Below are positions 3,725 to 46,564 of a stretch of DNA of 49,011 nt, piece after piece. The translations under genes and the position numbers were made by a program. The notes beneath the pieces were generated by a model. It was not told the origin of the DNA and did not search any database. It worked only from the letters and a program-made list of their open reading frames with translations. Position 1 is the first letter of the stretch. The number at the start of each line of letters is the position of its first letter. Source of the stretch: a virus; UHGV virus genome UHGV-1353889. One strand, given 5' to 3'.

Positions 3725-4039
3725 TTAATTTATTCGTATGCCTGTTCTCTCTTCATCGAGTTTTTTTAGCTTGTATCGCATAGCTCTCACTGAATAAATT
3801 GAGCGGCAGGTTGCAATTGCTATTTCTTCTGCGGAGAACTTACCGAAAAGTGATACTTCGGCTCTTGTCCAGCGTCTTCCACGAAGTCGGCTAACAATGT
3901 CAGCGCCAATCCTTGTTGCTTTCGCCATTACTGCTTTTTCAGTCCTTTCCAGTTTTTCAGCGATAACTTCAACTGGCATTGTCGCCGCTACTTCGCGTAA
4001 GAAATCGACTTCCCATTTCTCCCAAGGAGTCTTTTTCAT
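3725..4039 (-). CDS. Conserved phage protein, putative DNA-binding (two HTH-like segments)
   Basis: 104 aa; near-identical paralogue at 44553..44867. Confidence 0.45.
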
Positions 4040-4050
4040 AGGCGATACCG

Positions 4051-4539
4051 TTATTTGATAAGAAGTGAAGGTTTCCCAACTTTGAGTTGAGCACCGGGGA
4101 TATTTATTCCTGCTTTTAGTTGGTGTTTGATTGCCAGTTTGTCGGCTTTAATTGTCGTTTCGAACTCAACGTATTCAGGAGGAAGGGCGCTTGAGTCGAT
4201 GATTTCTACAGTTTCTGACGGTTTGCGGATTGTTACCTGGTGAATACCTGCTCGAATCTTTTTCTTTCCAACCATTTCAAGCGATGACGCTATATACGTC
4301 ATAATGCTATCAATCTTATTTTGAATTACTGCTGCTCTTTCATTCAGTGACTTTGCCTCTTCCTTGAGGCGTTCAGCATAACCAGACTCATTTTTAATGA
4401 TGGCAAGAAGTTGCTCTATTTTATCGGTAAATTCTCCTTCCATGCCTTCTATTGTGTCAGCAATCATCTCTGGTTCTAAATCTGAATCCATCAATTTTGC
4501 GTATTCATTGGCAATTTCATACAGTTTGCTCACTGGCAA
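4051..4539 (-). CDS. Gp157-like protein (Sipho_Gp157 family, tentative)
   Basis: 162 aa acidic coiled-coil protein directly downstream of the RecT-family gene, the usual partner position; identical copy at 44879..45367. Confidence 0.5.
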   Translation of the reverse strand: MPVSKLYEIANEYAKLMDSDLEPEMIADTIEGMEGEFTDKIEQLLAIIKNESGYAERLKEEAKSLNERAAVIQNKIDSIMTYIASSLEMVGKKKIRAGIHQVTIRKPSETVEIIDSSALPPEYVEFETTIKADKLAIKHQLKAGINIPGAQLKVGKPSLLIK

Positions 4540-5428
4540 CCTCCAGTTTCGCTTTGCATTCTATGTAAATGGCTTGTACGTTCTGCTGCAATTTCATTCC
4601 AGATGTCAGGCGATATGCTTCTGCAAAATATCGCTTCAAATCATCCATGTTTTCTGCCTGAGCCATTTCATCACAAAGAAGTTGTGCTTTATCCGTTATT
4701 TCCTGCTGGCGTTTCCGTTCATCTTCGCGGATATCTTCCTCTGATTTGTGCGGCATAACTGGTTCAGTCCACACACCTTCTTCTTCGTTTAGTACGTGAA
4801 TAGCACTATCAAGACGTGATGCCTTAGGCCAATACTTGCTTGCACGCTTTACGACCGTCTTTCGCGCCATCTCATTCCAGTGATTTACCCATGGTCCTTT
4901 ATCGCTGAATGCCGCCTTGCTTGTTTTCCTTACAGCCTCAATTTCAGCCAGACTCATCTCTTCCGTTAGATAATCACCTGCTGGCGTCTTAACTGTGCAG
5001 TAAACGCCAACGATATCACCACGATCACCGAAGGCGTTGTATTTATGGGTTGGTGCTTTATCAAGCCCGTTTGACTCATAGGTATCGTTAGCATGAACAA
5101 GTTTTGCCTGACCCCATGAGATAACACCAGACTCCATTGCAATATGGAGCAATCCCATATAGCTGATATCAAGGCAAACCATGCCGTCGCGCGGAACCAG
5201 ATAAGCCAGTTTGCTAGCCGGGTTTAAGGTGATGCCGATCGCCGCAACATTGATGATGGCGTTCTGTGCGCTGGTTGGATTTGCCAGTGCCGTTTTAGCC
5301 AGGTAATCATTTTTCTGGAAATACTGAATTGCAAACTGGCTTTCCTTAGCCCATGTCACCGTCTGTTCAGTCAATGCTCCGCAGAATAACTGCTCCTGCT
5401 GTTTAACGAATTCAACGATATTGCTCAT
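4517..5428 (-). CDS. RecT-family single-strand annealing recombinase
   Basis: 303 aa; segment GPWVNHWNEMARKTVVKRASKYWP parallels the RecT core GPWVTHWEEMAKKTAIRRLFKYLP; identical copy at 45345..46256. Confidence 0.75.
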   Translation of the reverse strand: MSNIVEFVKQQEQLFCGALTEQTVTWAKESQFAIQYFQKNDYLAKTALANPTSAQNAIINVAAIGITLNPASKLAYLVPRDGMVCLDISYMGLLHIAMESGVISWGQAKLVHANDTYESNGLDKAPTHKYNAFGDRGDIVGVYCTVKTPAGDYLTEEMSLAEIEAVRKTSKAAFSDKGPWVNHWNEMARKTVVKRASKYWPKASRLDSAIHVLNEEEGVWTEPVMPHKSEEDIREDERKRQQEITDKAQLLCDEMAQAENMDDLKRYFAEAYRLTSGMKLQQNVQAIYIECKAKLEVASEQTV

Positions 5429-5736
5429 GCTGCTTCTCCATAAATGTGTCTGCGTTTGAATATTGCGAAGGCATATTCAGCCTTAACTCTTTCGGTTATT
5501 GCATCCCAGAACCATTCAGCGGCTTTTTCCTGATAGTTACAGTCATCATCTTCCAGCCAGTCGATAGCGTCCTTAGTGTGTTCATCTGGTTTATATGAGC
5601 GAAGCATTTCGCTTATTGGGTCGCAACGTTTGCAGAGACGATCAACTTCACTGTTGATTCGTTCGTAATCTTCATCAGTAAAACTTGCGATAATTTGCGA
5701 TATTTCACGCTTATCATTCAGAGTCAGAATCATCAT
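5425..5736 (-). CDS. Hypothetical early protein
   Basis: 103 aa, start overlaps RecT-family gene stop; copy at 46253..46564 with one substitution. Confidence 0.45.
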   Translation of the reverse strand: MMILTLNDKREISQIIASFTDEDYERINSEVDRLCKRCDPISEMLRSYKPDEHTKDAIDWLEDDDCNYQEKAAEWFWDAITERVKAEYAFAIFKRRHIYGEAA

Positions 5737-10060: not shown

Positions 10061-11008
10061 ATGAGCAATACAGCAAAAATCTACGATTTCAGCGCCGCAC
10101 ACGAGCGCAGGAGCAACAGGATGGAGAACCAGAAAACTGGTTACATTCCGTTGTACCGGAGCATTCTGAAACAGTCATGGGCGAAAGATGTTTATCTTCG
10201 CACCCTGTGGGAAAACCTTCTCCTGAATGCCGCCAGAAAGCCATACAAAGCGAATTTCAAAGGTCATGAATGGCATCTGCAACCCGGTCAACTGGTTGTG
10301 ACAGCAGCTGATTTAGGTCTTCAGTTATGCGACAGACATGGCAAGCCAGCAAGCCGTGATCAGGTTGAGCGGATGCTTCAGGTTTTTGTGAAAGAGGGGA
10401 TGATCTCCATTGATGGAGAGAAGCAAAAAGGTCGTGTGATCACCATCACAAATTACCATGAATACGCTCAAAAAATGGACAATTCACCCGCACATGAAGC
10501 CGCACAAACAACCGCACATGATGCCGCACATGACGAAGCCGGCAATGGCGCGGCTTTCAGAGTACATGCCGCACATGAAAGCGCACATGAAGCCGCACAA
10601 ACAACCGCACATCATGAACAAGAAGGTATTAACAAGAATATAAATAATACCCCCCTACCCCCCAATGGGGGCGGCGATGGGCAGGTTAAACCTGAACGTC
10701 GCAAGGCAGAACGAATCGACTACGAATCCTTCCTGAACGCCTACAACACCGAAGTCGGTGACAGACTTCCACACGCTGTTGCGGTCAACGAGAAACGAAA
10801 ACGCCGCCTGAAGAAAATTATCCCGCAACTGAAAACGCCAAACGTGGACGGTTTCAGAGCGTATGTCAGGGCGTTTGTGCATCAGGCCAAGCCGTTTTAC
10901 TTCGGAGACAACGACACGGGCTGGACAGCTGATTTTGATTACCTGTTGAGGGAAGATTCGTTAACGGGAGTACGGGAAGGGAAGTTTGCAGACAGGGGGA
11001 TTGCATGA
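10061..11008 (+). CDS. Replication initiator, O-like (non-lambda allele)
   Basis: 315 aa in the O position upstream of the helicase; central low-complexity [10 protein letters not shown] linker is encoded by direct DNA repeats (iterons). Confidence 0.65.
10487..10650. repeat. Origin-like iteron array plus AT-rich tract inside the O-like gene
   Basis: Multiple tandem copies of CCGCACATGA/CCGCACAAAC-type units followed by AAGAATATAAATAATAC. Confidence 0.6.
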
Positions 11009-29655: not shown

Positions 29656-31005
29656 ATGGCTAAGTGGCAACAGGGTATTAATTCTGGTGGTTTTCTGGCT
29701 GGCATCGGTACGCAAAACGAGAATGCACCAAAGGCAAGCGACATTAACGCAACGCTTGGTCTGATCCGCGAAAACAATGAGTTGGCTCGCTCAGGTGCAA
29801 ATAACGTTGGTCTGACCGCGTTACGTGGTCTGGCTGGAGTTGCTGATATTTACAATCAGGAACAGCAACAGAAAGCGATTAATGCGTTCAATAAGGTTCA
29901 CGCTGATGCATGGGCTTCTGGTGATCCATCGGGACTATTTAAGTTTGCCCAGGAAAATCCAGCGTTTGTTGCACAGGCACAACAGGCGTTTTCCGGTCTT
30001 AATGATCAGCAACGCAACGATATGGGCGATTTAGCCATGAGGGCTAACGTCGCTCTTTCTCAGGGACCGGAAGCCTACAGTAAATTCATTACTGACAACA
30101 AGGACAGGTTAAATCGCGTGGGGGCGAATGCTGACTGGATGATTCAGACAGGTATCCAGAATCCAGAGCAGCTATCACACATGCTGACTACTATGACGCT
30201 AGGGGCTGTTGGTCCGGATAAAATGCTGGATTATCAGGATAAGATGGTTGGTCGCCAACTTGAGAAAGGGCGATTGGATGAAAGCATCCGTCAGGCTGAC
30301 ATGGAGAACGCGAGAGGATGGGCAAATATCCAAAACGCTCAACTAGACAGGGCTCAGCGGGCACAAATGCATAATGATAACGTAGCCCTGAAGTTGCAGG
30401 AATTAGGGATGAAACAACAGGAAAGCGGAAAGATTGACCCAAAACTTGTTCGAGATCTGAATAGTGATATTAATGGGTTCTCAAAGAATTATTCTGCAAT
30501 GCGCAGTGCTGCTGACAACCTACAAGCCCTTGGGAAGCGCAACACTCCGGCCGCGCAGTTGGGAATGATTTTCAACTATATGAAATCGCTGGATCCGCAA
30601 TCTGTGGTACGCGAAGGTGAGCAAGTGCAGGTAAAACGCACTGATGGAATATTCGGCACACTTGGTAACTATGTTAGCCAATTATCTAACGGCAAGATGC
30701 TGAATAATGAGCAAGTCCAAGACTTAATCAACACCTCAAAACTGATGGCAAATACTGAAGGAGAAAAGTTTAATCAGCAAATGGATGATTATCTTTCAAC
30801 TTATGGGGATTCTCTCCCCAGCGGACTAACTAAGCAATTGCAATCCAGAAAAGCCAAGCTGTATGAAGATATTCAGCAGCCTGCGCAACAACAGACACAA
30901 CAAGCAACATCTGGCGGTCAAACATTTCGAGAAGGTATGACCGCGAAAAATCCTAAAACTGGTCAGAAAATTATTTACAGGAACGGACAATGGCAACCAA
31001 TGTAG
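29656..31005 (+). CDS. Ejection protein, gp20-like
   Basis: 449 aa, synteny with P22 ejection cassette. Confidence 0.55.
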
Positions 31006-33113
31006 GTTTACCAGAGGGGTTTGTTCTGGATGAACAGCCTGATAACTCACAGCTTCCTGATGGCTTTGTGCTTGATGCACAACCAGAACAGCAGCAATCT
31101 CCTTTGGTTTCACTAGAGGAAAATTCCAGACAGGAAAATGTTGTTAATAATGCTAACGGCTTCGACCGTTTTATGTATGGCGTTCTCAGTGGATTGATGG
31201 ATGTTGGTAAAGGTGTTGGCCTGTTTCAGGACATGACACCAGAAGAGCAAGCCGCAATTCAGTCTCTACAGCAGAAGTTAGCGGCAAAACCATCAACCGC
31301 ACAAGATGTTGGTGAGTTCGTTGGACAAGCAGCGCCATTTGTTAGTGGTGGTGGGATTATTTCTCAGGTTCCGAAAGGGGCGGCAAGGCTGGCTGCCGCC
31401 GCAGGGCTTGGTGCTGGAGAAGGGGCTATTGTAGCCAATGGAACAAATAGCGATGTTGCTTCCGGCGCTGCTATTGGCGCTGTGGCTGGCCCTGTAGCCG
31501 AGATTGTTGGTCCAGCGCTTGGGAAGATTGCAGGAAAAATTAAAAATAGTGCCGGAGATATTTATCGCTCATCCGTAGGGATGGGTAGTAAATCATCTAA
31601 AGCAACGTTAAAGAAAGCTGCTGGCGCAATGGACAATAAATTTATCGGCGGGCAACGAGCTATTCAAGATTTCGCCGATGAAGTTAATCCTGATTTTAAC
31701 GCGATAAATGCTATTCGTGAGCTAGAACTGGAAAATTATGCCACTCCAGGCATGATCTCTAATAATCCTGCTGTCAGGGCTCTTGATAATGCAGTGGCAA
31801 GTCTCCCTGGAACAGAGATTAGTGAGGCGCATAAGCGTTTTATTACTGAATTAGGAAGAAAAGCTGATGAAATGATAACTTCATTTGGGGGAAGCCTTGA
31901 TAAGCAACTGGTTTCTGACAGGCTTGCAGATAATTTTGATAAAACCATTTCATCATTACAAAATCAGTCAGATAACATCTACAACAAAATTGCCGAAAAG
32001 GTTCCTGTAAGAGACCGGATTGAGGCAACTAATACATTGAATTTTTTAGAGGATTTTGCTGATGACATAGGTGGAATTGATGAATTATCTCCAATAATGA
32101 AGCGGACATTGAACCGACTTGATCCAAACACCTTGCCAACGTATGGGCGTTTAGATCTCGCTAGAAAGCAGGTTGGACAAGCTATTGGCAAAGGCTCTGG
32201 TCCATTCAAGGATGAAGAAACAGGTGTTCTTAAAAAGTTATATGCAGCCATAACAGATGACCAACAGGCTGTCGCAGAAAAATATGGCGCAGGGGAATTA
32301 TGGACGCTTGGTAAGGAGTTGGTAAAAAAACGAAAATCCATTGAAGATGATGCTGTAACCGTCTTGGGTAGAAAACTTCAGCAATCAGCAATTCCAAAAG
32401 TTGAAAGTGCTGTTGTTAATATGGCAAAAGGAAACGGTGGCGACTTTAGGCAATTAATGAAGTCGATTCCAAAGGATATGCGGCAGGAAGTTGCGCTCAC
32501 CTCAATGAATAAAGCATTTACCAGCTATGCCAAATCACCTGGTCAGCAATTAGGAGTTGATGGATTTGTAAAATGGTATAACGGAATGTCACGCAATGGG
32601 GCCAATATGAAGGCTCTCCGTGATGCTATTGGCACAGATGCATCAAAGCGCCTTGATACGATTTATCAAGCAGCTAAGGCTATGAATAGACTCAATACTG
32701 GTAAGCAGTATGCTAGTAGTCTTGTGGATCAGCAAGTTAATAACTTTCTGAAAGAAAAGGGTAGTCTCGCAAAAATTTATGGAATAGCCTCAAAAGCTGC
32801 TGCGGCGGAAGGTATTACAAGCTTATCTGGTCTCCCTGGTGTAGGTGCAACAGGGGTGATAACGTCTGCATTGATGTCAGGGAAAACAAGCAGGATAAAG
32901 GCTGCTGATGCTCTGCTATCTTCTCCTGAGTTTAAATCAATGCTATTTCGCCTGCAAAACGCACCAGTAGACAGAGCAGAAGTGAGACGCGCAATAGAAA
33001 GGAAACTGATGCAATCTGGGGCATTTAAGAGATGGGAGAAAACCTTATCAACAGATGAAGCAAAAACCATTGCCCGCACGGGGATTATTACATGGCTCGC
33101 TAGTGACAGTTAG
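30990..33113 (+). CDS. Ejection protein, gp16-like
   Basis: 707 aa, last gene of ejection cassette. Confidence 0.5.
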
Positions 33114-33705: not shown

Positions 33706-34155
33706 GTGTTCATGCTTACTTGTTTTGATGTCGCCGACTACTTCCTGTCGCGGTGTGACGAGGATAGCGGTGACACAATCTCTAATTTAAAATTACAAAA
33801 GCTTGTTTACTATGCTCAGGGTTTTTCATTGGCGTTGCTTGGCGAGCCTCTTTTTCAGAATAAGATGGAAGCTTGGATGCATGGCCCTGTTGTCCCTGAG
33901 CTTTATCGCCGTTATAAACAATATGGTAATGGCGCTATCCCTTCTCCAGAGTCTTTTGATGCTGAAAAATTCAGCGAAGAACAGTTAGAGCTATTAGAAG
34001 AAGTCTGGGATGTTTTTGGGCAATTTTCTGCCTGGAAACTGAGGAACATGACACACGAAGAGTCACCATGGAGATCAAACTATATTGAGGGTGTTGGTGG
34101 TTCTGAAATTAGCTCTAAGGAGATGGCAGAGTACTTTGCAACTCGGATTAACTAA
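33706..34155 (+). CDS. Panacea (DUF4065/COG3600)-like domain protein, putative antitoxin/adaptor
   Basis: 149 aa; NLKLQKLVYYAQG ... EAWMHGPVVPELY matches my recollection of the DUF4065 signature. Confidence 0.6.
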   Translation: MFMLTCFDVADYFLSRCDEDSGDTISNLKLQKLVYYAQGFSLALLGEPLFQNKMEAWMHGPVVPELYRRYKQYGNGAIPSPESFDAEKFSEEQLELLEEVWDVFGQFSAWKLRNMTHEESPWRSNYIEGVGGSEISSKEMAEYFATRIN

Positions 34156-34159
34156 CGAG

Positions 34160-34579
34160 ATGGCAAGAAAATCTAAAAGGATTATCCCCCCTGCTGAATC
34201 TACAGGTAAGTTAAAGTTAGGGCCGCAGTCAGGGGGGAATTCAGATCAAAAGAAACCGAAGTTTTCATTCTGTTACATCCAAAGCTCTCACTGCATAACG
34301 AAATGCCAAAAAGATGAGAAAGCTGGCTTAGCTGATAAATTATACAGATTAAGTCAACTAACATGGGCAGAGATTAAGCAGCAAGGTAGGCATAAGCTTG
34401 GATTTGAGAAGATTGCAAGGGGTGCAATTAAAGCAGGTATCCCCAGTCATATAACGGAAGACGTAGATCATTTCTTGGCTTTTAGATTTGATGATTTGAA
34501 AGCCATGGTTGGTTATCGTCTTGGATCGACATTTTTTGTTATATGGCTTGATAGAGAGTTCAACCTATACAAGCACTAA
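34160..34579 (+). CDS. Uncharacterized 139-aa partner of the Panacea-like gene (candidate toxin/effector)
   Basis: ATG 5 nt after upstream stop; basic disordered N-terminus, C-terminal beta-rich segment YRLGSTFFVIWLD; terminator follows. Confidence 0.5.
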   Translation: MARKSKRIIPPAESTGKLKLGPQSGGNSDQKKPKFSFCYIQSSHCITKCQKDEKAGLADKLYRLSQLTWAEIKQQGRHKLGFEKIARGAIKAGIPSHITEDVDHFLAFRFDDLKAMVGYRLGSTFFVIWLDREFNLYKH

Positions 34580-34582
34580 TAA

Positions 34583-34607
34583 AACCCACCGTCAGGTGGG
34601 TTTTTTA
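34583..34607. terminator. Bidirectional intrinsic terminator
   Basis: Hairpin AACCCACCGTCAGGTGGGTT flanked by A-run upstream and T-run downstream. Confidence 0.65.
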
Positions 34608-34631: not shown

Positions 34632-35168
34632 TCAAACAACCCACCAGTTTGCCTGATTGGATGCCAGCCTTGCAGTTTTTATGGAATTAATTATGCCATG
34701 CTCAAGAGCCTTGTTAGCATCCAAAATGGTCGAGTCTGCTATCAGGGATGCCCACCTAATATGGGTTCCGATGTCGATATTGAACGTCTCAACGAAGCGA
34801 TCAAGATCGTTATCGAGGCATTTCCCGTACTCTCTCAGTCTGGCATGGTCGGCGGCTGGGGTGGCAAAGCCCCATAATAGAGGATGTAACAGGAATCTTG
34901 ATAATGGGTTTGCGAAACGTTCTGAGCCAGCCAGGAAAACGATATTAGCTATGGATTCAACATTGCTTATGTTGTGAGTTCTAACGGTAACAGGGAGTGA
35001 CTTAAGAAAGTTATACGCAGTAAAACCAGCGGCAGTTTCCCCTCCCTGACTTGATATATGGATATTTAATTCAGTTGCGCCTTGAGATAATGCGGTGAGA
35101 CAGTGGTTCTGAAGTTGCCCAACAGTGGCGGTGTTAACGGGGCATAAGAAATGAATTGTGTGCAGCAT
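34632..35168 (-). CDS. ClpP-like (S14-family fold) serine peptidase homologue
   Basis: 178 aa; ISSQGGETAAG parallels ClpP INSPGGVITAG; candidate triad Ser (VESIA), His (LLHPL), Asp (ILDAN); start overlaps mnt stop (TAATG). Confidence 0.6.
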   Translation of the reverse strand: MLHTIHFLCPVNTATVGQLQNHCLTALSQGATELNIHISSQGGETAAGFTAYNFLKSLPVTVRTHNISNVESIANIVFLAGSERFANPLSRFLLHPLLWGFATPAADHARLREYGKCLDNDLDRFVETFNIDIGTHIRWASLIADSTILDANKALEHGIINSIKTARLASNQANWWVV

Positions 35169-35416
35169 TATTTATCATCCTTACCATACATGGTTTTCAG
35201 CGTCTCCAGCAGCGCCTCTTTGAATTTGTCAGCTTCTTGCTGAGCAAATGACTCAACTGACTTTGGCGACCTATCTTCATCAATCGCGGCTTGCAAAATC
35301 ATGACGATCTCGGAGTTAACAGAGCGACCATTTTTTGATGCTCTAACAGCAAGAGCCTCGCGTAAAGATTCAGGGATTCTTACCGTAGTTGGAGAAATTG
35401 ACACACCCTTTGCCAT
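35168..35416 (-). CDS. mnt: Mnt-like repressor (ribbon-helix-helix)
   Basis: 82 aa; NGRSVNSEI RHH motif, same length as P22 Mnt. Confidence 0.7.
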   Translation of the reverse strand: MAKGVSISPTTVRIPESLREALAVRASKNGRSVNSEIVMILQAAIDEDRSPKSVESFAQQEADKFKEALLETLKTMYGKDDK

Positions 35417-35530
35417 AACACACCTTTGGTATTCAATTTGATATCAAAGTGTATGCAAAAAAATTTTGACTAGATATACTCACTTTGCTATCTTTTGTAT
35501 TCGAAAAGAGTTGTTTGTGTGGAGGGTAAC
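35417..35530. promoter_or_regulatory. Divergent immI promoter/operator region (mnt versus arc-ant)
   Basis: Palindrome TTTGATATCAAA and further inverted repeats between divergent RHH repressor genes. Confidence 0.45.
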
Positions 35531-35683
35531 ATGGAGAAAGAAATAAGTAAGATTTTGGTAAGGATGCCGCAGTCGTTAAAGGATGCTATCGGTAGCAGGG
35601 CAAAGGAAGAGTGCAGGTCGTTTAACTCAGAGGTTATCAAGCGCCTGATAGACAGCCTGAAGAAAGAGGGGGTGGCGATATGA
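35531..35683 (+). CDS. arc: Arc-like repressor (ribbon-helix-helix)
   Basis: 50 aa from ATG at 35531 with GGAGGG RBS; CRSFNSEVIKRLIDSLKKEGV parallels P22 Arc. Confidence 0.7.
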   Translation: MEKEISKILVRMPQSLKDAIGSRAKEECRSFNSEVIKRLIDSLKKEGVAI

Positions 35684-35862
35684 ATAAAGAAGATGGCTTT
35701 AAGTGCTCCTTCTGCGGAAAGCCTCAGCATGAATGTGCAATGTTGATTCGCGCTAAAGCAGAGATATTTATCTGTAGTGGTTGTGTATCTCTTTGCGTTG
35801 AAGCGATGGGGAAAGAGTTAAATTCTAGAAAAACAATGTTAGATGTGAACATAAAACAGTGA
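35680..35862 (+). CDS. ClpX N-terminal zinc-binding-domain-like protein (ZBD only)
   Basis: 60 aa; [10 protein letters not shown] ... [10 protein letters not shown] parallels ClpX ZBD CSFCGKSQHE ... YICDECVDLC; ATGA overlap with arc stop. Confidence 0.6.
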
Positions 35863-35924
35863 AGCCCCAACTGCGGGAACAGTCAGGGCTTCGGTTGTCA
35901 GTAAATCCGTGGAGAAAAACCAAC

Positions 35925-36827
35925 ATGAATAGTATAGCAATTTTAGAAGCAGTGAACACCTCTTACGTACCATTCAACGGTCAGCAAATTATCACCGCCA
36001 TGGCTGCCGGAGTTGCATATGTTGCGATGAAGCCAATCGTTGAAAACCTCGGAATGAGCTGGGGTACTCAGCAACAAAAACTTATGAAACAACTAGATAA
36101 GTTCAAATGTATTCATATGAATATGGTTGCTGCTGATGGAAAGCTTCGTAAGCTACTCTGCCTTCCTTTGAAGAAGTTAAATGGATGGCTGTTCAGCATC
36201 AACCCTGAGAAAGTTCGTGCTGACATCCGTGATAAACTGATTCAGTACCAGGAAGAATGCTTTACTGTACTGCATGACTACTGGACAAAGGGAAAGGCAG
36301 AAAATGCACGTAAGAAAACATCTGTTGATGACAGGACTCCGCTTCGTGATGCTGTAAATATGCTAGTCAGCAAAAAGCATCTAATGTACCCAGAAGCTTA
36401 TGCAATGATTCATCAGCGTTTCAATGTGGAAAGTATTGAAGAGCTTGATGCATCTCAGATACCGCAAGCCGTAGAGTACATCCACAGGGTAGTGCTTGAA
36501 GGTGAATTTATCGGCAAACAAGAGAAGAAAACCAACGAGTTTTCTGCAAAAGAAGCAAACAGCCTTGTATGGTTATGGGATTATGCCAACCGTTCACAGG
36601 CATTATTCCGCGAACTGTATCCGGCATTAAAACAAATTCAATCGAACTATTCCGGCAGATGCTACGACTACGGTCATGAGTTCTCGTATGTTATCGGAAT
36701 GGCGAGGGACGTTTTAATCAATCACTCACGAGATGTTGATATCAATGAGCCAGACGGACCAACGAATCTTTCCGCATGGATGAGACTTAAGAATAAAGAA
36801 TTACCTCCTTCAATACATAACTACTGA
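35925..36827 (+). CDS. ant: Antirepressor Ant
   Basis: 300 aa from ATG at 35925 (GGAGA RBS), same length as P22 Ant; follows arc in immI arrangement. Confidence 0.65.
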
Positions 36828-36844
36828 CAGATAACCAACGCAAC

Positions 36845-36870
36845 GACCCAGCTTCGGCTGGGTTTTTTTA
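36845..36870 (+). terminator. Intrinsic terminator after ant
   Basis: Hairpin CCCAGCTTCGGCTGGG followed by T7. Confidence 0.7.
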
Positions 36871-37005: not shown

Positions 37006-39951
37006 ATGACAGACATTACAGCCAATGTTGTAGTGAGTATGCCTTCGCAACTCTTCACTATGGCGCGTTCTTTTAAAGCAGTTGCCAATGGCAAAATTTA
37101 TATCGGTCAGGTTGACACTGACCCGGTAAATCCTGAAAACCAGATTCAGGTTTATGTAGAGAACGAAGACGGCTCGCACGTTCCTGTTTCGCAACCAATC
37201 ATCATTAACGCTGCTGGATATCCGGTATATAACGGACAGATTGCCAAATTCGTAACCGTGCAAGGCCATTCTATGGCTGTTTATGATGCGTATGGTACAC
37301 AGCAGTTCTATTTTCCTAATGTGCTGAAGTATGATCCTGATCAGTTACGGCAGCAATTAGAAGACCCAGATGGAGCGAATAAATACCCAAAACTTCAGAT
37401 AGCAAGATGGAGAGACAGTTATGATGTAAGAGGTTGGGGGGCTATTGGTGATGGTGTTCATGATGATACATCAGCTCTATCAGAATTACTTTCTGTTGCA
37501 ACAGGTGGTGAAAAGATAGATGGGCGAGGGCTTACTTTTAAAGTATCAACTCTTCCAGATGTCAGTCGATTTAAAAATGCTCGTTTTTTATTTGAGAGAA
37601 TACCGGGTCAGCCTCTTTTTTATGCTTCTGAAGATTTTATCCAGGGAGAGTTATTTAAAATTACAGATACACCGTGGTACAACGCCTGGACGCAGGATAA
37701 AACGTTTGTATATGACAATGTCATCTATGCGCCTTTTATGGCTGGAGACCGCCATGGTGTAAATAACCTCCATGTTGCATGGGTTCGCTCAGGAGATGAC
37801 GGGAAGACCTGGACAACGCCGGAATGGCTTACAGATTTACATGAAAACTATCCCACAGTTAACTATCACTGCATGAGTATGGGGGTTGTCAGAAATCGCC
37901 TTTTTGCTGTAATTGAGACGCGGACCGTGAGCGGAAATAAACTGCAGGTTGCAGAGTTGTGGGATCGCCCAATGAGTCGCAGCCTTCGCGTTTATGGTGG
38001 TATAACGAAAGCAGCAAATCAGCAAGTCGCTTATATTCGCATTACTGATCACGGATTATTTGCTGGTGATTTTGTCAACTTCTCAAACTCTGGTGTTACA
38101 GGTGTTACCGGGAATATGACGGTGACTACTGTTATTGATAAAAATACTTTTACAGTTACGACGCAAAATACCCAGGATGTGGATCAGAATAACGAGGGTA
38201 GATACTGGAGTTTTGGTACATCATTTCACTCGTCACCATGGAGAAAAACCAGTCTTGGAACTATTCCTTCTTTTGTTGACGGAAGCACTCCTGTTACTGA
38301 GATTCACAGTTTTGCGACGATTAGCGATAACAGTTTTGCTGTTGGCTACCATAATGGTGATATTGATCCACGCGAGCTTGGGATACTCTATTTCTCTGAT
38401 GCTTTCGGTTCTCCTGGTAGCTTTGTTCGCAGACGCATACCTGTAGAATATGAGGCGAATGCATCTGAGCCATGTGTAAAATATTATGATGGCATTCTGT
38501 ATCTGACGACCAGGGGGACATTAAGTACTCAACCCGGTAGTTCATTGCACAGAAGCTCTGATTTAGGTACATCATGGAATTCTCTTCGCTTCCCAAATAA
38601 TGTTCATCACTCAAACCTTCCTTTTGCCAAAGTTGGCGATGAGCTGATTATTTTTGGCAGTGAGCGCGCATTTGGTGAGTGGGAAGGAGGAGAACCTGAT
38701 AACCGTTATGCAGGAAATTATCCAAGAACATTTATGACCAGAGTTAACGTCAATGAGTGGAGTCTGGATAATGTAGAGTGGGTTAATGTTACTGATCAGA
38801 TTTATCAGGGCGGAATAGTTAACTCTGCGGTTGGTGTTGGTTCAGTTTGTATCAAAGACAACTGGCTGTACTACATTTTCGGTGGGGAAGACTTTCTAAA
38901 CCCATGGAGCATAGGGGATAACAACAGAAAATATCCTTATGTTCACGATGGTCACCCGGCTGATTTGTATTGTTTCAGGGTGAAAATTAAACAGGAAGAA
39001 TTTGTTTCAAGGGATTTTGTCTACGGAGCCACTCCTAACAGAACGCTTCCTACTTTTATGTCGACGTCAGGCGTGAGGACGGTTCCTGTACCCGTTGATT
39101 TCACAGATGATGTTGCCGTCCAGTCACTGACTGTCCATGCAGGTACATCAGGAAAAGTTCGCGCGGAAGTCAAACTTGAGGGTAATTACGCCATTATTGC
39201 GAAGAAAGTACCGTCTGATGATGTTACCGCTCAGAGATTAATCGTTAGCGGCGGTGAAACAACGTCTTCAGCAGATGGTGCAATGATAACGTTGCATGGT
39301 TCCGGAAGCAGTACTCCACGTCGCGCGGTATATAACGCACTCGAACATCTTTTTGAGAACGGAGATGTTAAACCTTATCTTGATAATGTAAATGCTCTTG
39401 GTGGTCCGGGAAACAGGTTCTCGACAGTTTATCTTGGCTCCAATCCTGTGGTTACCAGTGACGGAACATTAAAGACAGAGCCGGTCTCTCCTGACGAAGC
39501 ATTGCTGGATGCCTGGGGTGACGTCAGGTATATCGCTTATAAATGGCTGAACGCTGTCGCTATAAAGGGGGAAGAAGGGGCGAGGATACATCATGGTGTA
39601 ATCGCGCAGCAACTTCGTGATGTTCTTATTTCTCACGGACTCATGGAAGAAGAAAGCACAACATGCCGCTATGCGTTTCTTTGCTATGACGATTATCCCG
39701 CAGTATATGATGACGTCATTACTGGCCAAAGGGAAATGCCGCTGACTGATAATGACGGGAGCATCATTGTTGATGAGGATGATAATCCAGTGATGGTAAT
39801 GGAAGACATCATTGAGCGCGTTGAAATAACGCCAGCAGGATCTAGATGGGGGGTCAGACCTGATCTCTTATTCTATATCGAGGCGGCATGGCAGCGCAGA
39901 GAAATAGAAAGAATAAAAGCTAGGTTAGACTTAATAGAAGGGAAGCACTAA
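37006..39951 (+). CDS. Tailspike: P22 gp9-type head-binding domain fused to endosialidase-like Asp-box domain and C-terminal intramolecular-chaperone domain
   Basis: 981 aa; N-terminus matches P22 tailspike head-binding domain; Asp-boxes SGDDGKTW and SSDLGTSW; C-terminal self-cleaving chaperone-like module. Confidence 0.75.
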
Positions 39952-44552: not shown

Positions 44553-44867
44553 TTAATTTATTTGTATGCCTGCTCTTTTTTCATCGAGTTTTTTTAGCTT
44601 GTATCGCATAGCTCTTACTGAATAAATTGAGCGGCAGGTTGCAATTGCTATTTCTTCTGCGGAGAACTTACCGAAAAGTGATACTTCGGCTCTTGTCCAG
44701 CGTCTTCCACGAAGTCGGCTAACAATGTCAGCGCCAATCCTTGTTGCTTTCGCCATTACTGCTTTTTCAGTCCTTTCCAGTTTTTCAGCGATAACTTCAA
44801 CTGGCATTGTCGCCGCTACTTCGCGTAAGAAATCGACTTCCCATTTCTCCCAAGGAGTCTTTTTCAT
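44553..44867 (-). CDS. Conserved phage protein, putative DNA-binding (copy of 3725..4039)
   Basis: 104 aa, 3 substitutions near C-terminus relative to element 1. Confidence 0.45.
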   Translation of the reverse strand: MKKTPWEKWEVDFLREVAATMPVEVIAEKLERTEKAVMAKATRIGADIVSRLRGRRWTRAEVSLFGKFSAEEIAIATCRSIYSVRAMRYKLKKLDEKRAGIQIN

Positions 44868-44878
44868 AGGCGATACCG

Positions 44879-45367
44879 TTATTTGATAAGAAGTGAAGGT
44901 TTCCCAACTTTGAGTTGAGCACCGGGGATATTTATTCCTGCTTTTAGTTGGTGTTTGATTGCCAGTTTGTCGGCTTTAATTGTCGTTTCGAACTCAACGT
45001 ATTCAGGAGGAAGGGCGCTTGAGTCGATGATTTCTACAGTTTCTGACGGTTTGCGGATTGTTACCTGGTGAATACCTGCTCGAATCTTTTTCTTTCCAAC
45101 CATTTCAAGCGATGACGCTATATACGTCATAATGCTATCAATCTTATTTTGAATTACTGCTGCTCTTTCATTCAGTGACTTTGCCTCTTCCTTGAGGCGT
45201 TCAGCATAACCAGACTCATTTTTAATGATGGCAAGAAGTTGCTCTATTTTATCGGTAAATTCTCCTTCCATGCCTTCTATTGTGTCAGCAATCATCTCTG
45301 GTTCTAAATCTGAATCCATCAATTTTGCGTATTCATTGGCAATTTCATACAGTTTGCTCACTGGCAA
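44879..45367 (-). CDS. Gp157-like protein (copy)
   Basis: Identical to 4051..4539. Confidence 0.5.
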   Translation of the reverse strand: MPVSKLYEIANEYAKLMDSDLEPEMIADTIEGMEGEFTDKIEQLLAIIKNESGYAERLKEEAKSLNERAAVIQNKIDSIMTYIASSLEMVGKKKIRAGIHQVTIRKPSETVEIIDSSALPPEYVEFETTIKADKLAIKHQLKAGINIPGAQLKVGKPSLLIK

Positions 45368-46256
45368 CCTCCAGTTTCGCTTTGCATTCTATGTAAATGG
45401 CTTGTACGTTCTGCTGCAATTTCATTCCAGATGTCAGGCGATATGCTTCTGCAAAATATCGCTTCAAATCATCCATGTTTTCTGCCTGAGCCATTTCATC
45501 ACAAAGAAGTTGTGCTTTATCCGTTATTTCCTGCTGGCGTTTCCGTTCATCTTCGCGGATATCTTCCTCTGATTTGTGCGGCATAACTGGTTCAGTCCAC
45601 ACACCTTCTTCTTCGTTTAGTACGTGAATAGCACTATCAAGACGTGATGCCTTAGGCCAATACTTGCTTGCACGCTTTACGACCGTCTTTCGCGCCATCT
45701 CATTCCAGTGATTTACCCATGGTCCTTTATCGCTGAATGCCGCCTTGCTTGTTTTCCTTACAGCCTCAATTTCAGCCAGACTCATCTCTTCCGTTAGATA
45801 ATCACCTGCTGGCGTCTTAACTGTGCAGTAAACGCCAACGATATCACCACGATCACCGAAGGCGTTGTATTTATGGGTTGGTGCTTTATCAAGCCCGTTT
45901 GACTCATAGGTATCGTTAGCATGAACAAGTTTTGCCTGACCCCATGAGATAACACCAGACTCCATTGCAATATGGAGCAATCCCATATAGCTGATATCAA
46001 GGCAAACCATGCCGTCGCGCGGAACCAGATAAGCCAGTTTGCTAGCCGGGTTTAAGGTGATGCCGATCGCCGCAACATTGATGATGGCGTTCTGTGCGCT
46101 GGTTGGATTTGCCAGTGCCGTTTTAGCCAGGTAATCATTTTTCTGGAAATACTGAATTGCAAACTGGCTTTCCTTAGCCCATGTCACCGTCTGTTCAGTC
46201 AATGCTCCGCAGAATAACTGCTCCTGCTGTTTAACGAATTCAACGATATTGCTCAT
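45345..46256 (-). CDS. RecT-family single-strand annealing recombinase (copy)
   Basis: Identical to 4517..5428. Confidence 0.75.
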   Translation of the reverse strand: MSNIVEFVKQQEQLFCGALTEQTVTWAKESQFAIQYFQKNDYLAKTALANPTSAQNAIINVAAIGITLNPASKLAYLVPRDGMVCLDISYMGLLHIAMESGVISWGQAKLVHANDTYESNGLDKAPTHKYNAFGDRGDIVGVYCTVKTPAGDYLTEEMSLAEIEAVRKTSKAAFSDKGPWVNHWNEMARKTVVKRASKYWPKASRLDSAIHVLNEEEGVWTEPVMPHKSEEDIREDERKRQQEITDKAQLLCDEMAQAENMDDLKRYFAEAYRLTSGMKLQQNVQAIYIECKAKLEVASEQTV

Positions 46257-46564
46257 GCTGCTTCTCCATAAATGTGTCTGCGTTTGAATATTGCGAAGGC
46301 ATATTCAGCCTTAACTCTTTCGGTTATTGCATCCCAGAACCATTCAGCGGCTTTTTCCTGATAGTTACAATCATCATCTTCCAGCCAGTCGATAGCGTCC
46401 TTAGTGTGTTCACCTGGTTTATATGAGCGAAGCATTTCGCTTATTGGGTCGCAACGTTTGCAGAGGCGATCAACTTCACTGTTGATTCGCTCGTAATCTT
46501 CATCAGTAAAACTTGCGATTATTTGCGATATTTCACGCTTATCATTCAGAGTCAGAATCATCAT
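46253..46564 (-). CDS. Hypothetical early protein (copy of 5425..5736)
   Basis: 103 aa with one substitution; track ORF 46253..46672 is an artificial read-through across the N gap. Confidence 0.45.
   Translation of the reverse strand: MMILTLNDKREISQIIASFTDEDYERINSEVDRLCKRCDPISEMLRSYKPGEHTKDAIDWLEDDDCNYQEKAAEWFWDAITERVKAEYAFAIFKRRHIYGEAA

Follow-up and report, generated by a model that had tools for sequence, protein, structure and literature searches.

The 49,011-nt stretch of DNA analysed here (the window; virus genome UHGV-1353889) is a P22-like (Lederbergvirus-type) prophage of Escherichia coli, with Escherichia phage phiv205-1 as its top phage match. The gene order runs from the integrase through O/DnaB-type replication genes to the genes for the head, the ejection protein and the tailspike. 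The immunity I (immI) region of the window carries mnt, divergent promoters, arc, sar, ant and a terminator in the canonical P22-type order. It displays the features by which a P22-type immI is recognized, namely, divergent mnt and arc genes for ribbon-helix-helix (RHH) repressors, sar lying across the start of ant, a P22-type ant, and a location between the genes for an ejection-protein homologue (30990-33113) and the tailspike (37006-39951). Inserted in this operon, between arc and sar, is an open reading frame (ORF) of 183 nt (35680-35862, plus strand) that encodes a 60-aa protein matching the zinc-binding domain (ZBD) of the unfoldase ClpX; this ORF and its possible function are the subject of the present analysis.

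The left side of the region is formed by a gene for an mnt-like repressor of 82 aa on the minus strand (35168-35416; Pfam Arc/RHH, 41.8 bits), which is divergent from arc and occupies the position of mnt in phage epsilon34. It is followed by a putative Pant-like promoter on the plus strand (35466-35494; TTGACT, 17-nt spacer, TG-TATCTT), recognized in a consensus scan with 9 of 12 positions and an extended -10 TG; the position of this promoter in the mnt-arc control region agrees with the annotated Pmnt/Pant/arcO feature of epsilon34. The arc gene (35531-35683, plus strand; 50 aa; Pfam Arc, 47.8 bits), annotated in RefSeq as 'Arc family DNA-binding protein' in identical prophages, leads into the ZBD ORF. 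The antirepressor gene ant (35925-36827, plus strand; 300 aa) matches P22_AR_N and P22_AR_C with 152 and 101 bits, respectively, and is 96.6% identical at the DNA level to ant of epsilon34 and 85.8% identical to that of P22. An intrinsic terminator (36845-36864, plus strand), detected in a terminator scan and annotated at the same place in epsilon34, closes the arc-ZBD-ant transcript. The original prediction, made from the sequence of the window, held that the ZBD ORF directly precedes ant. This is accurate insofar as ant is the next gene on the plus strand, but the 62-nt spacer between the two (35863-35924) is occupied by the gene for the antisense RNA sar on the minus strand (35858-35924), which scores 87.7 bits with Rfam RF00262 (gathering score 43) and has an annotated counterpart at the corresponding position in epsilon34. 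The body of sar is complementary to the ribosome-binding region of ant, and its terminator-like hairpin (35892-35861, minus strand) includes in its stem the TGA stop codon of the ZBD ORF. Besides sar, the prediction had overlooked that the slot behaves as a cassette site and that the protein already has a RefSeq annotation, both described below. Two minus-strand ORFs across this region (35488-35730 and 35724-35870) were dismissed as spurious because of the strong domain match on the plus strand.

The 60-aa product is a genuine ClpX-type ZBD. The zf-C4_ClpX profile (PF06689) matches residues 8-42 over profile positions 2-36 of 39 with 42.2 bits (E 7.6e-11), well above the gathering score of 27. 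As a control for chance similarity, a ZBD profile was run over the 1146 six-frame segments of the window, of which the ORF scored 55.8 bits and the runner-up 9.2. The zinc-ligand cysteines are arranged as C9-x2-C12 ... C32-x2-C35 with a spacing of 19, found in 102 of 346 ZBD-like domains compared (18 being the spacing in 210 of them). The only solved structures matched by the ORF are ClpX ZBDs and full ClpX chains (1ovx and 2ds5, both at E 2e-7), and the alignment with the E. coli ClpX ZBD contains 19 identical residues out of 39 (49%) and a single gap. The domain spans residues 7-46, and residues 50-60 are predicted to be disordered. The AlphaFold2 model has a mean predicted local distance difference test (pLDDT) score of 74, with core blocks at 83-91 and the tail (residues 50-60) below 50; its strands (residues 22-26 and 29-32) and helix (33-50) make up the predicted beta-hairpin and helix of a treble clef. 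When compared using Foldseek, this model superimposes on the ClpX ZBD structures 2ds5, 2ds6, 2ds7 and 2ds8 with a root-mean-square deviation of 0.9-1.1 Å and a probability of 1.00, the target-normalized TM-score being 0.78-0.86 for 2ds5, 2ds6 and 2ds8. Thus, the claim that the ORF conserves the C-x2-C...C-x2-C knuckle of the ClpX ZBD is borne out by the Pfam score, the predicted fold within about 1 Å and the 49% identity. The product is predicted to bind zinc and probably dimerizes.

Equally correct was the observation that the ORF lacks an AAA+ module. Translation stops after 60 codons, with no room for a motor, and the NCBIfam equivalog profiles for ClpX reach only 32.9 and 28.6 bits, far below the respective cut-offs of 359 and 371, with profile matches confined to positions 3-50. 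The product is, accordingly, not a ClpX unfoldase. Compared with ClpX of the host, the ORF product belongs to the same Pfam family and has a fold that agrees to about 1 Å, but it is devoid of both the linker and the AAA+ module and is encoded by a phage, within an immunity operon.

The signals around the ORF point to expression together with its neighbours. The ATG start codon overlaps the arc stop codon (ATGA), seven bases past the Shine-Dalgarno sequence GAGGGGG, in agreement with the predicted coupling to arc, and the terminator scan detected no plus-strand terminator between Pant and position 36845. Given this overlap and the uninterrupted transcription unit, a single transcript should carry the ZBD ORF along with arc and ant, and its translation should be coupled to that of arc. 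In P22, Mnt represses Pant in lysogens, and Arc represses it following an early burst. In epsilon34, transcripts of the late operon run on across the ant moron into the gene for the tailspike (PMC2629481). By analogy with P22, the ZBD would be expressed in the Pant burst that follows infection or loss of Mnt and, additionally, by late-operon read-through. A promoter-like site also lies on the minus strand a short way downstream of the sar terminator, within the ZBD ORF (35849-35822; TTCACA, 16-nt spacer, TAGAAT; 10 of 12 positions); it may be a chance occurrence, because such sites are no more frequent in this region than in shuffled sequence.

The immI region is highly mosaic, with ten types recognized among sixteen phages (PMC2629481), and comparison of E. 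coli P22-like prophage loci (the window, L001, L002, L022 and L023-L028) shows that the gap between the arc stop codon and the sar terminator is a cassette slot with fixed boundaries, in which at least five unrelated small ORFs alternate. The cargo invariably starts with an (A/G)TGA overlap, preceded by a constant Shine-Dalgarno sequence, GAGAGGGGG, and invariably ends with the TGA that belongs to the sar terminator stem (..TGAAGCCCC..). In epsilon34 and P22, there is no gene between arc and sar, and the distance from the arc stop to the ant ATG is 68 nt compared with 241 nt in the window. In epsilon34, the arc stop lies immediately next to the sar terminator. The layout of the window equals the epsilon34 immI with one inserted ORF. 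The alternative cargos are a 57-aa protein (cargo A; PHROG 17642), as in phiv205-1, a 67-aa protein with a CxxC...CxxC motif (cargo B; PHROG 7150), a 73-aa protein (cargo C; PHROG 11805), an 89-aa protein with a predicted hydrophobic N-terminal segment (cargo D; PHROG 27312), as in EC.P3, and the 60-aa ZBD (cargo E). Their frequencies differ widely: among 5426 complete E. coli genomes, cargo B is found in 372 (~7%), cargo A in 93 and the ZBD in nine.

The ZBD gene moves as a cassette, because identical DNA recurs in different surroundings: its sequence is 100% identical in prophages that differ in the mnt-side neighbours, the ant allele and the tailspike. On one contig, which holds a degraded copy from IMG/VR (IMGVR_UViG_2534682161_000023; L010, 4001-4183), the ZBD ORF adjoins an arc gene that is only 82% identical to that of the window. 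All differences among the copies are non-synonymous, with one in L009 and, in L010, two missense changes and one nonsense change. The GC content of the ORF is 38% compared with 46% for the window.

Cargo B is the commonest of the three cargos counted. It is present in L024 (553-756) and L025 (E. coli 10035776-3 and MS 21-1) and in phage CUS-3 (CP000711.1, 6562-6762), with the sequence MSKECCFCGISESDADQTYIYSKETGRMLCSDCVLDIIRYKHLGCSASISNIGEVYEGKDITDRSES, but carries no coding-sequence annotation in the RefSeq records listed; the stretch in CUS-3 is labelled just 'boundary sequence'. Its similarity to the ZBD is weak (8.3 bits with the profile, hhalign probability of 42%, BLASTP E 0.024 and a shared match to PHROG 5259), and its AlphaFold2 model, with a pLDDT of 43, is too poor for a fold comparison.

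The ZBD protein is not new to the databases. The ORF is 100% identical at the DNA level to the gene of RefSeq protein WP_047668240.1, annotated as 'ClpX C4-type zinc finger protein', and it matches five PHROG families of short phage proteins (5259, 6797, 12435, 20296 and 3680). An exhaustive profile search retrieved 1509 cluster representatives at E <= 1e-3, of which the best 150 are mostly short proteins or tandem multi-ZBD proteins without the length of ClpX. At the 50% clustering level, the ORF forms a singleton cluster, and a search with a word index for homologues returned this cluster alone. The nearest single-domain relative, P0136, is 54% identical, has the same altered loop (see below) and is located among small phage-like ORFs near a Mom-like gene. 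A scan of GTDB yielded weak matches in unrelated taxa (43-60% identity over the domain), presumably their own ClpX genes. Other free ZBDs include a 65-aa 'Clp protease' of Pseudomonas phage PP9W2, a 110-aa protein of the E. coli P2-like phage P88 and gp258 of Bacillus phage G. Like these proteins, the ORF product is short, made of or ending in a ZBD, lacks an ATPase and is encoded among phage genes; it differs in being at most 54% identical to them and in its location, an arc-sar-ant operon, in which none of the others was encountered. We found no paper in the literature on the function of any stand-alone phage ZBD protein. Overall, the ORF is a further member of an already annotated, uncharacterized group of stand-alone ZBD proteins, whose setting in an arc-sar-ant cassette is noteworthy.

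As the original prediction stated, the ZBD is the site at which adaptors and substrates dock on ClpX, and the literature agrees. The ClpX N-domain binds lambda O, MuA, UmuD, FtsZ and the adaptor SspB (PMC3983244), and further ligands are MqsA and RssB (PMC7804408, PMC8808172). As an isolated domain, the ZBD folds independently, with binding of the XB peptide of SspB at 35-82 nM (PMC12373786); it is a homodimer and binds unfolded MqsA (PMC8808172). From the domain identity, the missing motor, the position in the operon, the translational coupling and the retention of key pocket residues, F17 and H23, we infer ligand binding, an effect on ClpXP and the nature of the clients. The ORF product would fold as a zinc-bound, probably dimeric ZBD. 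Lacking an AAA+ ring, it could deliver nothing to ClpP, and its action would therefore consist in competing, in solution, for the short peptides normally bound by the ClpX N-domain. The ligands subject to such competition would be lambda-O-type N-terminal degrons, the tails of SspB and RssB, the cryptic degron of the MqsA type, UmuD, MuA and FtsZ. The ClpXP-dependent degradation of N-domain ligands would slow down transiently, and pore-recognized substrates of the ssrA type would escape the effect. That the ORF product acts as a soluble decoy for peptides docking on the ClpX N-domain is a tentative proposal, which we consider possible rather than probable. It is plausible and partly supported, by the conservation of residues and the published in vitro behaviour of the free ZBD.

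To assess the ligand-binding surface, we compared the ORF with E. coli ClpX, using the residue numbering of the latter from Met1 unless the mature protein is specified and the residue roles reported previously (PMC7804408, PMC8808172). F17, which is F16 in the mature protein, lies in the hydrophobic pocket around F16/I46 that binds lambda O, trigger factor, SspB and RssB (PMC7804408), whereas L12, L13 and H23 are required for recognition of the cryptic MqsA degron, H23 also being implicated in SspB binding (PMC8808172). The ORF retains F17 (F11 in the ORF), Q22-H23-E24 (H23 corresponding to H17), L28-I29, all zinc ligands and the pattern of the C-terminal helix, and the changes at L13 (to F7) and Y35 (to F) are conservative. 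Histidine at the H23 position is found in only 30 of the 346 ZBD-like domains and the QHE motif in nine, and, given that these domains were gathered with the ORF as the query, both counts are, if anything, inflated.

Several observations weigh against the decoy interpretation. At the pocket, L12 is replaced by glycine (G6) and I47 by alanine (A42; the database variant P0001 has valine here), and the A30-G31-P32 loop, whose hydrophobic-hydrophobic-[A/S/G]-G-P pattern is present in 154 of the 346 domains, is changed to R-A-K-A with a one-residue insertion. Because L12 and the F16/I46 pocket matter for the known ligands, the specificity of the ORF product may differ from that of ClpX. Ligand binding by an isolated ZBD is documented for that of E. 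coli (PMC12373786, PMC8808172), and decoy activity is ascribed to the ORF product by analogy. At least four other, unrelated ORFs can occupy the slot, the ZBD cargo is rare (nine of the 5426 genomes), the L010 copy is a pseudogene with a nonsense codon at position 13 and two missense changes, and the copies, at 0-3 nt apart, offer too few changes for dN/dS analysis or a case for purifying selection. The association with a potential client, discussed next, is also imperfect.

The obvious beneficiary in this phage would be its own O-type initiator. This candidate client, suggested by inference only, is encoded at 10061-11008 on the plus strand (Pfam Phage_rep_O, 56.8 bits). Degradation of lambda O by ClpXP requires residues 1-12 of lambda O and the ClpX ZBD (PMC7804408). 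The initiator of the window has a 20-residue N-terminal extension (10061-10120; 11271-11330 in L034) that is similar to the ClpX degron of lambda O (MTNTAKILNF), although the remainder of the protein aligns weakly, and this pattern suggests conservation of a ZBD-dependent degron. The PGAP gene model of strain PSJ-36 begins at a downstream ATG and lacks the extension. A strict linkage between the ZBD and such an initiator was not found: only three of the five carrier prophages encode a lambda-O-type initiator, the other two having one that begins with MSNISNLAEA... and lacks a lambda O-like degron. The initiator type was read in five ZBD carriers, and in two further genomes, host genes were found at the expected distance.

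Among the alternatives to the decoy interpretation, the one that survives best, with an appreciable but clearly minor share of the probability, is that the ZBD fold is used as a small module for binding a protein unrelated to ClpXP competition, such as a partner in the immunity circuit (Ant or the prophage repressor) or a host protein, for example, FtsZ, so that the likeness to ClpX reflects ancestry rather than mimicry. This possibility is consistent with the wide spread of ZBD-like domains outside ClpX, evident from the 1509 representatives and the mostly short or tandem architecture of the best 150, with the five matching PHROG families of short phage proteins, and with P0136, which combines the same altered loop with small phage-like ORFs and a Mom-like neighbour. 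The ligand loop of the ORF is, moreover, unlike that of ClpX, and the ORF is invariably found in what should be one transcription unit with arc and ant. However, F17 and the rare QHE motif with H23, shared by the ORF and enterobacterial ClpX, point to a ClpX-type pocket, and the slot itself implies no role in the control of Ant because the alternative cargos are unrelated to each other.

A further, rather unlikely, version of the decoy would act in counter-defence: by occupying the N-domain degrons of labile antitoxins of the MqsA type, the ZBD would block the ClpXP-dependent activation of toxin-antitoxin or abortive-infection systems early in infection. MqsA does reach ClpXP via the ClpX N-domain and residues L12, L13 and H23 (PMC8808172), CmdTAC depends on degradation of its antitoxin by ClpX, MqsRAC has been described as an antiphage system (bioRxiv 10.1101/2024.02.24.581848), and early expression in the Pant burst would suit an anti-defence gene. 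Yet the degron of CmdA is a C-terminal Ala-Ala read by ClpX (bioRxiv 10.1101/2024.02.24.581848) and ssrA-type tags bypass the N-domain (PMC8808172), such that a free ZBD should not block CmdTAC, the one defence for which a need for ClpX has been demonstrated. Furthermore, L12 is not conserved in the ORF, and no PADLOC or anti-defence family matched it.

Slightly less likely still, the ORF could be a neutral or decaying passenger: a low-GC moron gained by horizontal transfer, with hardly any present function or none, and retained only through its location between conserved recombination anchors. Its rarity in the 5426 genomes, the nonsense mutation in one copy, the exclusively non-synonymous differences and the GC content of 38% in a window of 46% would all fit, but among prophages that vary in arc, ant, mnt-side neighbours and tailspikes, the ORF is found intact and with 100% identity, and every zinc ligand, the strong Shine-Dalgarno sequence and the start-stop coupling are kept. 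Least probable of all is a dominant-negative subunit that enters mixed dimers with nascent host ClpX N-domains, disables the trimer-of-dimers arrangement and alters N-domain recognition, given that the identity is merely 49%, the beta-hairpin carries an insertion and exchange into pre-existing ClpX dimers appears unlikely, despite the obligate homodimeric nature of the ClpX N-domain (PMC8808172) and the retained hydrophobic face of the C-terminal helix (V36, L38, C39 and M43).

Two neighbours of the immI genes might suggest a ClpXP theme, but neither is linked to the ZBD. A ClpP-like ORF of 178 aa (34632-35168, minus strand; Pfam CLP_protease, 46.7 bits) overlaps mnt by TAATG and, being translationally coupled to mnt, is probably expressed in the lysogen. 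In the alignment with E. coli ClpP, which begins at ClpP residue 72, the catalytic Ser and His residues align, and the Asp is displaced by one position in the BLASTP result (moving the gap could bring D145 into register). RefSeq names this protein 'ATP-dependent Clp protease proteolytic subunit', and phage annotations name it 'head maturation protease'. A partnership with the ZBD was rejected, because among ten ZBD loci (the window, L003-L009 and the L010 pseudogene), the ClpP-like ORF is present in the window and L009 only; it is also found with cargos A, B and D. The ORF for a SocA/Panacea-domain protein (33706-34155, plus strand; Pfam, 87 bits), likewise considered as a ClpXP-related partner, assorts independently of the ZBD cargo. 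It is overlapped by a 160-aa ORF (34097-34579, plus strand) without a Pfam match and with a weak PADLOC match to NsnC (E 9e-6), and the two may form a toxin-antitoxin-like pair in the ant moron, the SocA/Panacea domain being the antitoxin domain. Between the convergent 160-aa and ClpP-like ORFs, there is a perfect GC-rich hairpin flanked by A/T runs (34581-34604; AAACCCACCTGACGGTGGGTTTT), which looks like a bidirectional terminator and for which Rfam gave just a partial sroH-like match. Elsewhere in the window, an exact direct repeat of 1753 bp (3789-5541 and 44617-46369) covers ORFs of the recombination region, and from ~40.6 kb onwards, the sequence downstream of the tailspike resembles the early-left arm of another lambdoid element.

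Small phage or host inhibitors of AAA+ proteolysis include lambda CIII, which acts against FtsH, T4 PinA, which acts against Lon, and the Ira anti-adaptors, directed against RssB. In common with these, the ORF product would be a small early protein that stabilizes selected substrates of an ATP-dependent protease of the host; however, the former target the adaptor or the protease as such, whereas the ZBD would mimic the docking domain, and there is no sequence relationship. A functional parallel is mycobacterial ClpC2 (PMC10030653), a free partial homologue of ClpC1 whose ligand-binding part sequesters ligands from the full enzyme. ClpC2 differs in that it has an unrelated fold and family, is a cellular protein, sponges an antibiotic and is also a transcription factor; furthermore, the sponge activity has been demonstrated for ClpC2, whereas for the ORF product it is only surmised.

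Extending the decoy interpretation to the whole slot, we speculate that the ZBD is a natural domain-mimic inhibitor, a motorless docking domain made in a burst with Arc and Ant that blinds ClpXP to its N-domain clients, including the O protein of the phage itself, adaptor tails and antitoxins, and that the arc-sar slot takes up cassettes encoding small early proteins for host takeover, including the commoner CxxC...CxxC protein found in ~7% of the complete E. coli genomes. We regard this extended scenario as possible but less likely than not. Should the decoy fail, a cargo slot with fixed boundaries in a classic regulatory operon, together with its uncharacterized small proteins, would still be defined. 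If the decoy is real, it would be, to our knowledge, the first natural trans-acting inhibitor to copy the substrate and adaptor docking domain of ClpX, and the 60-residue protein would be a tool to block N-domain-dependent proteolysis selectively. The genetics would be convenient, with a single 183-nt cassette and natural allelic replacements in the same slot as the handle, and this would give access to the N-domain clients during infection by temperate phages, that is, to the turnover of O, RpoS, SspB-assisted quality control and the decay of antitoxins.

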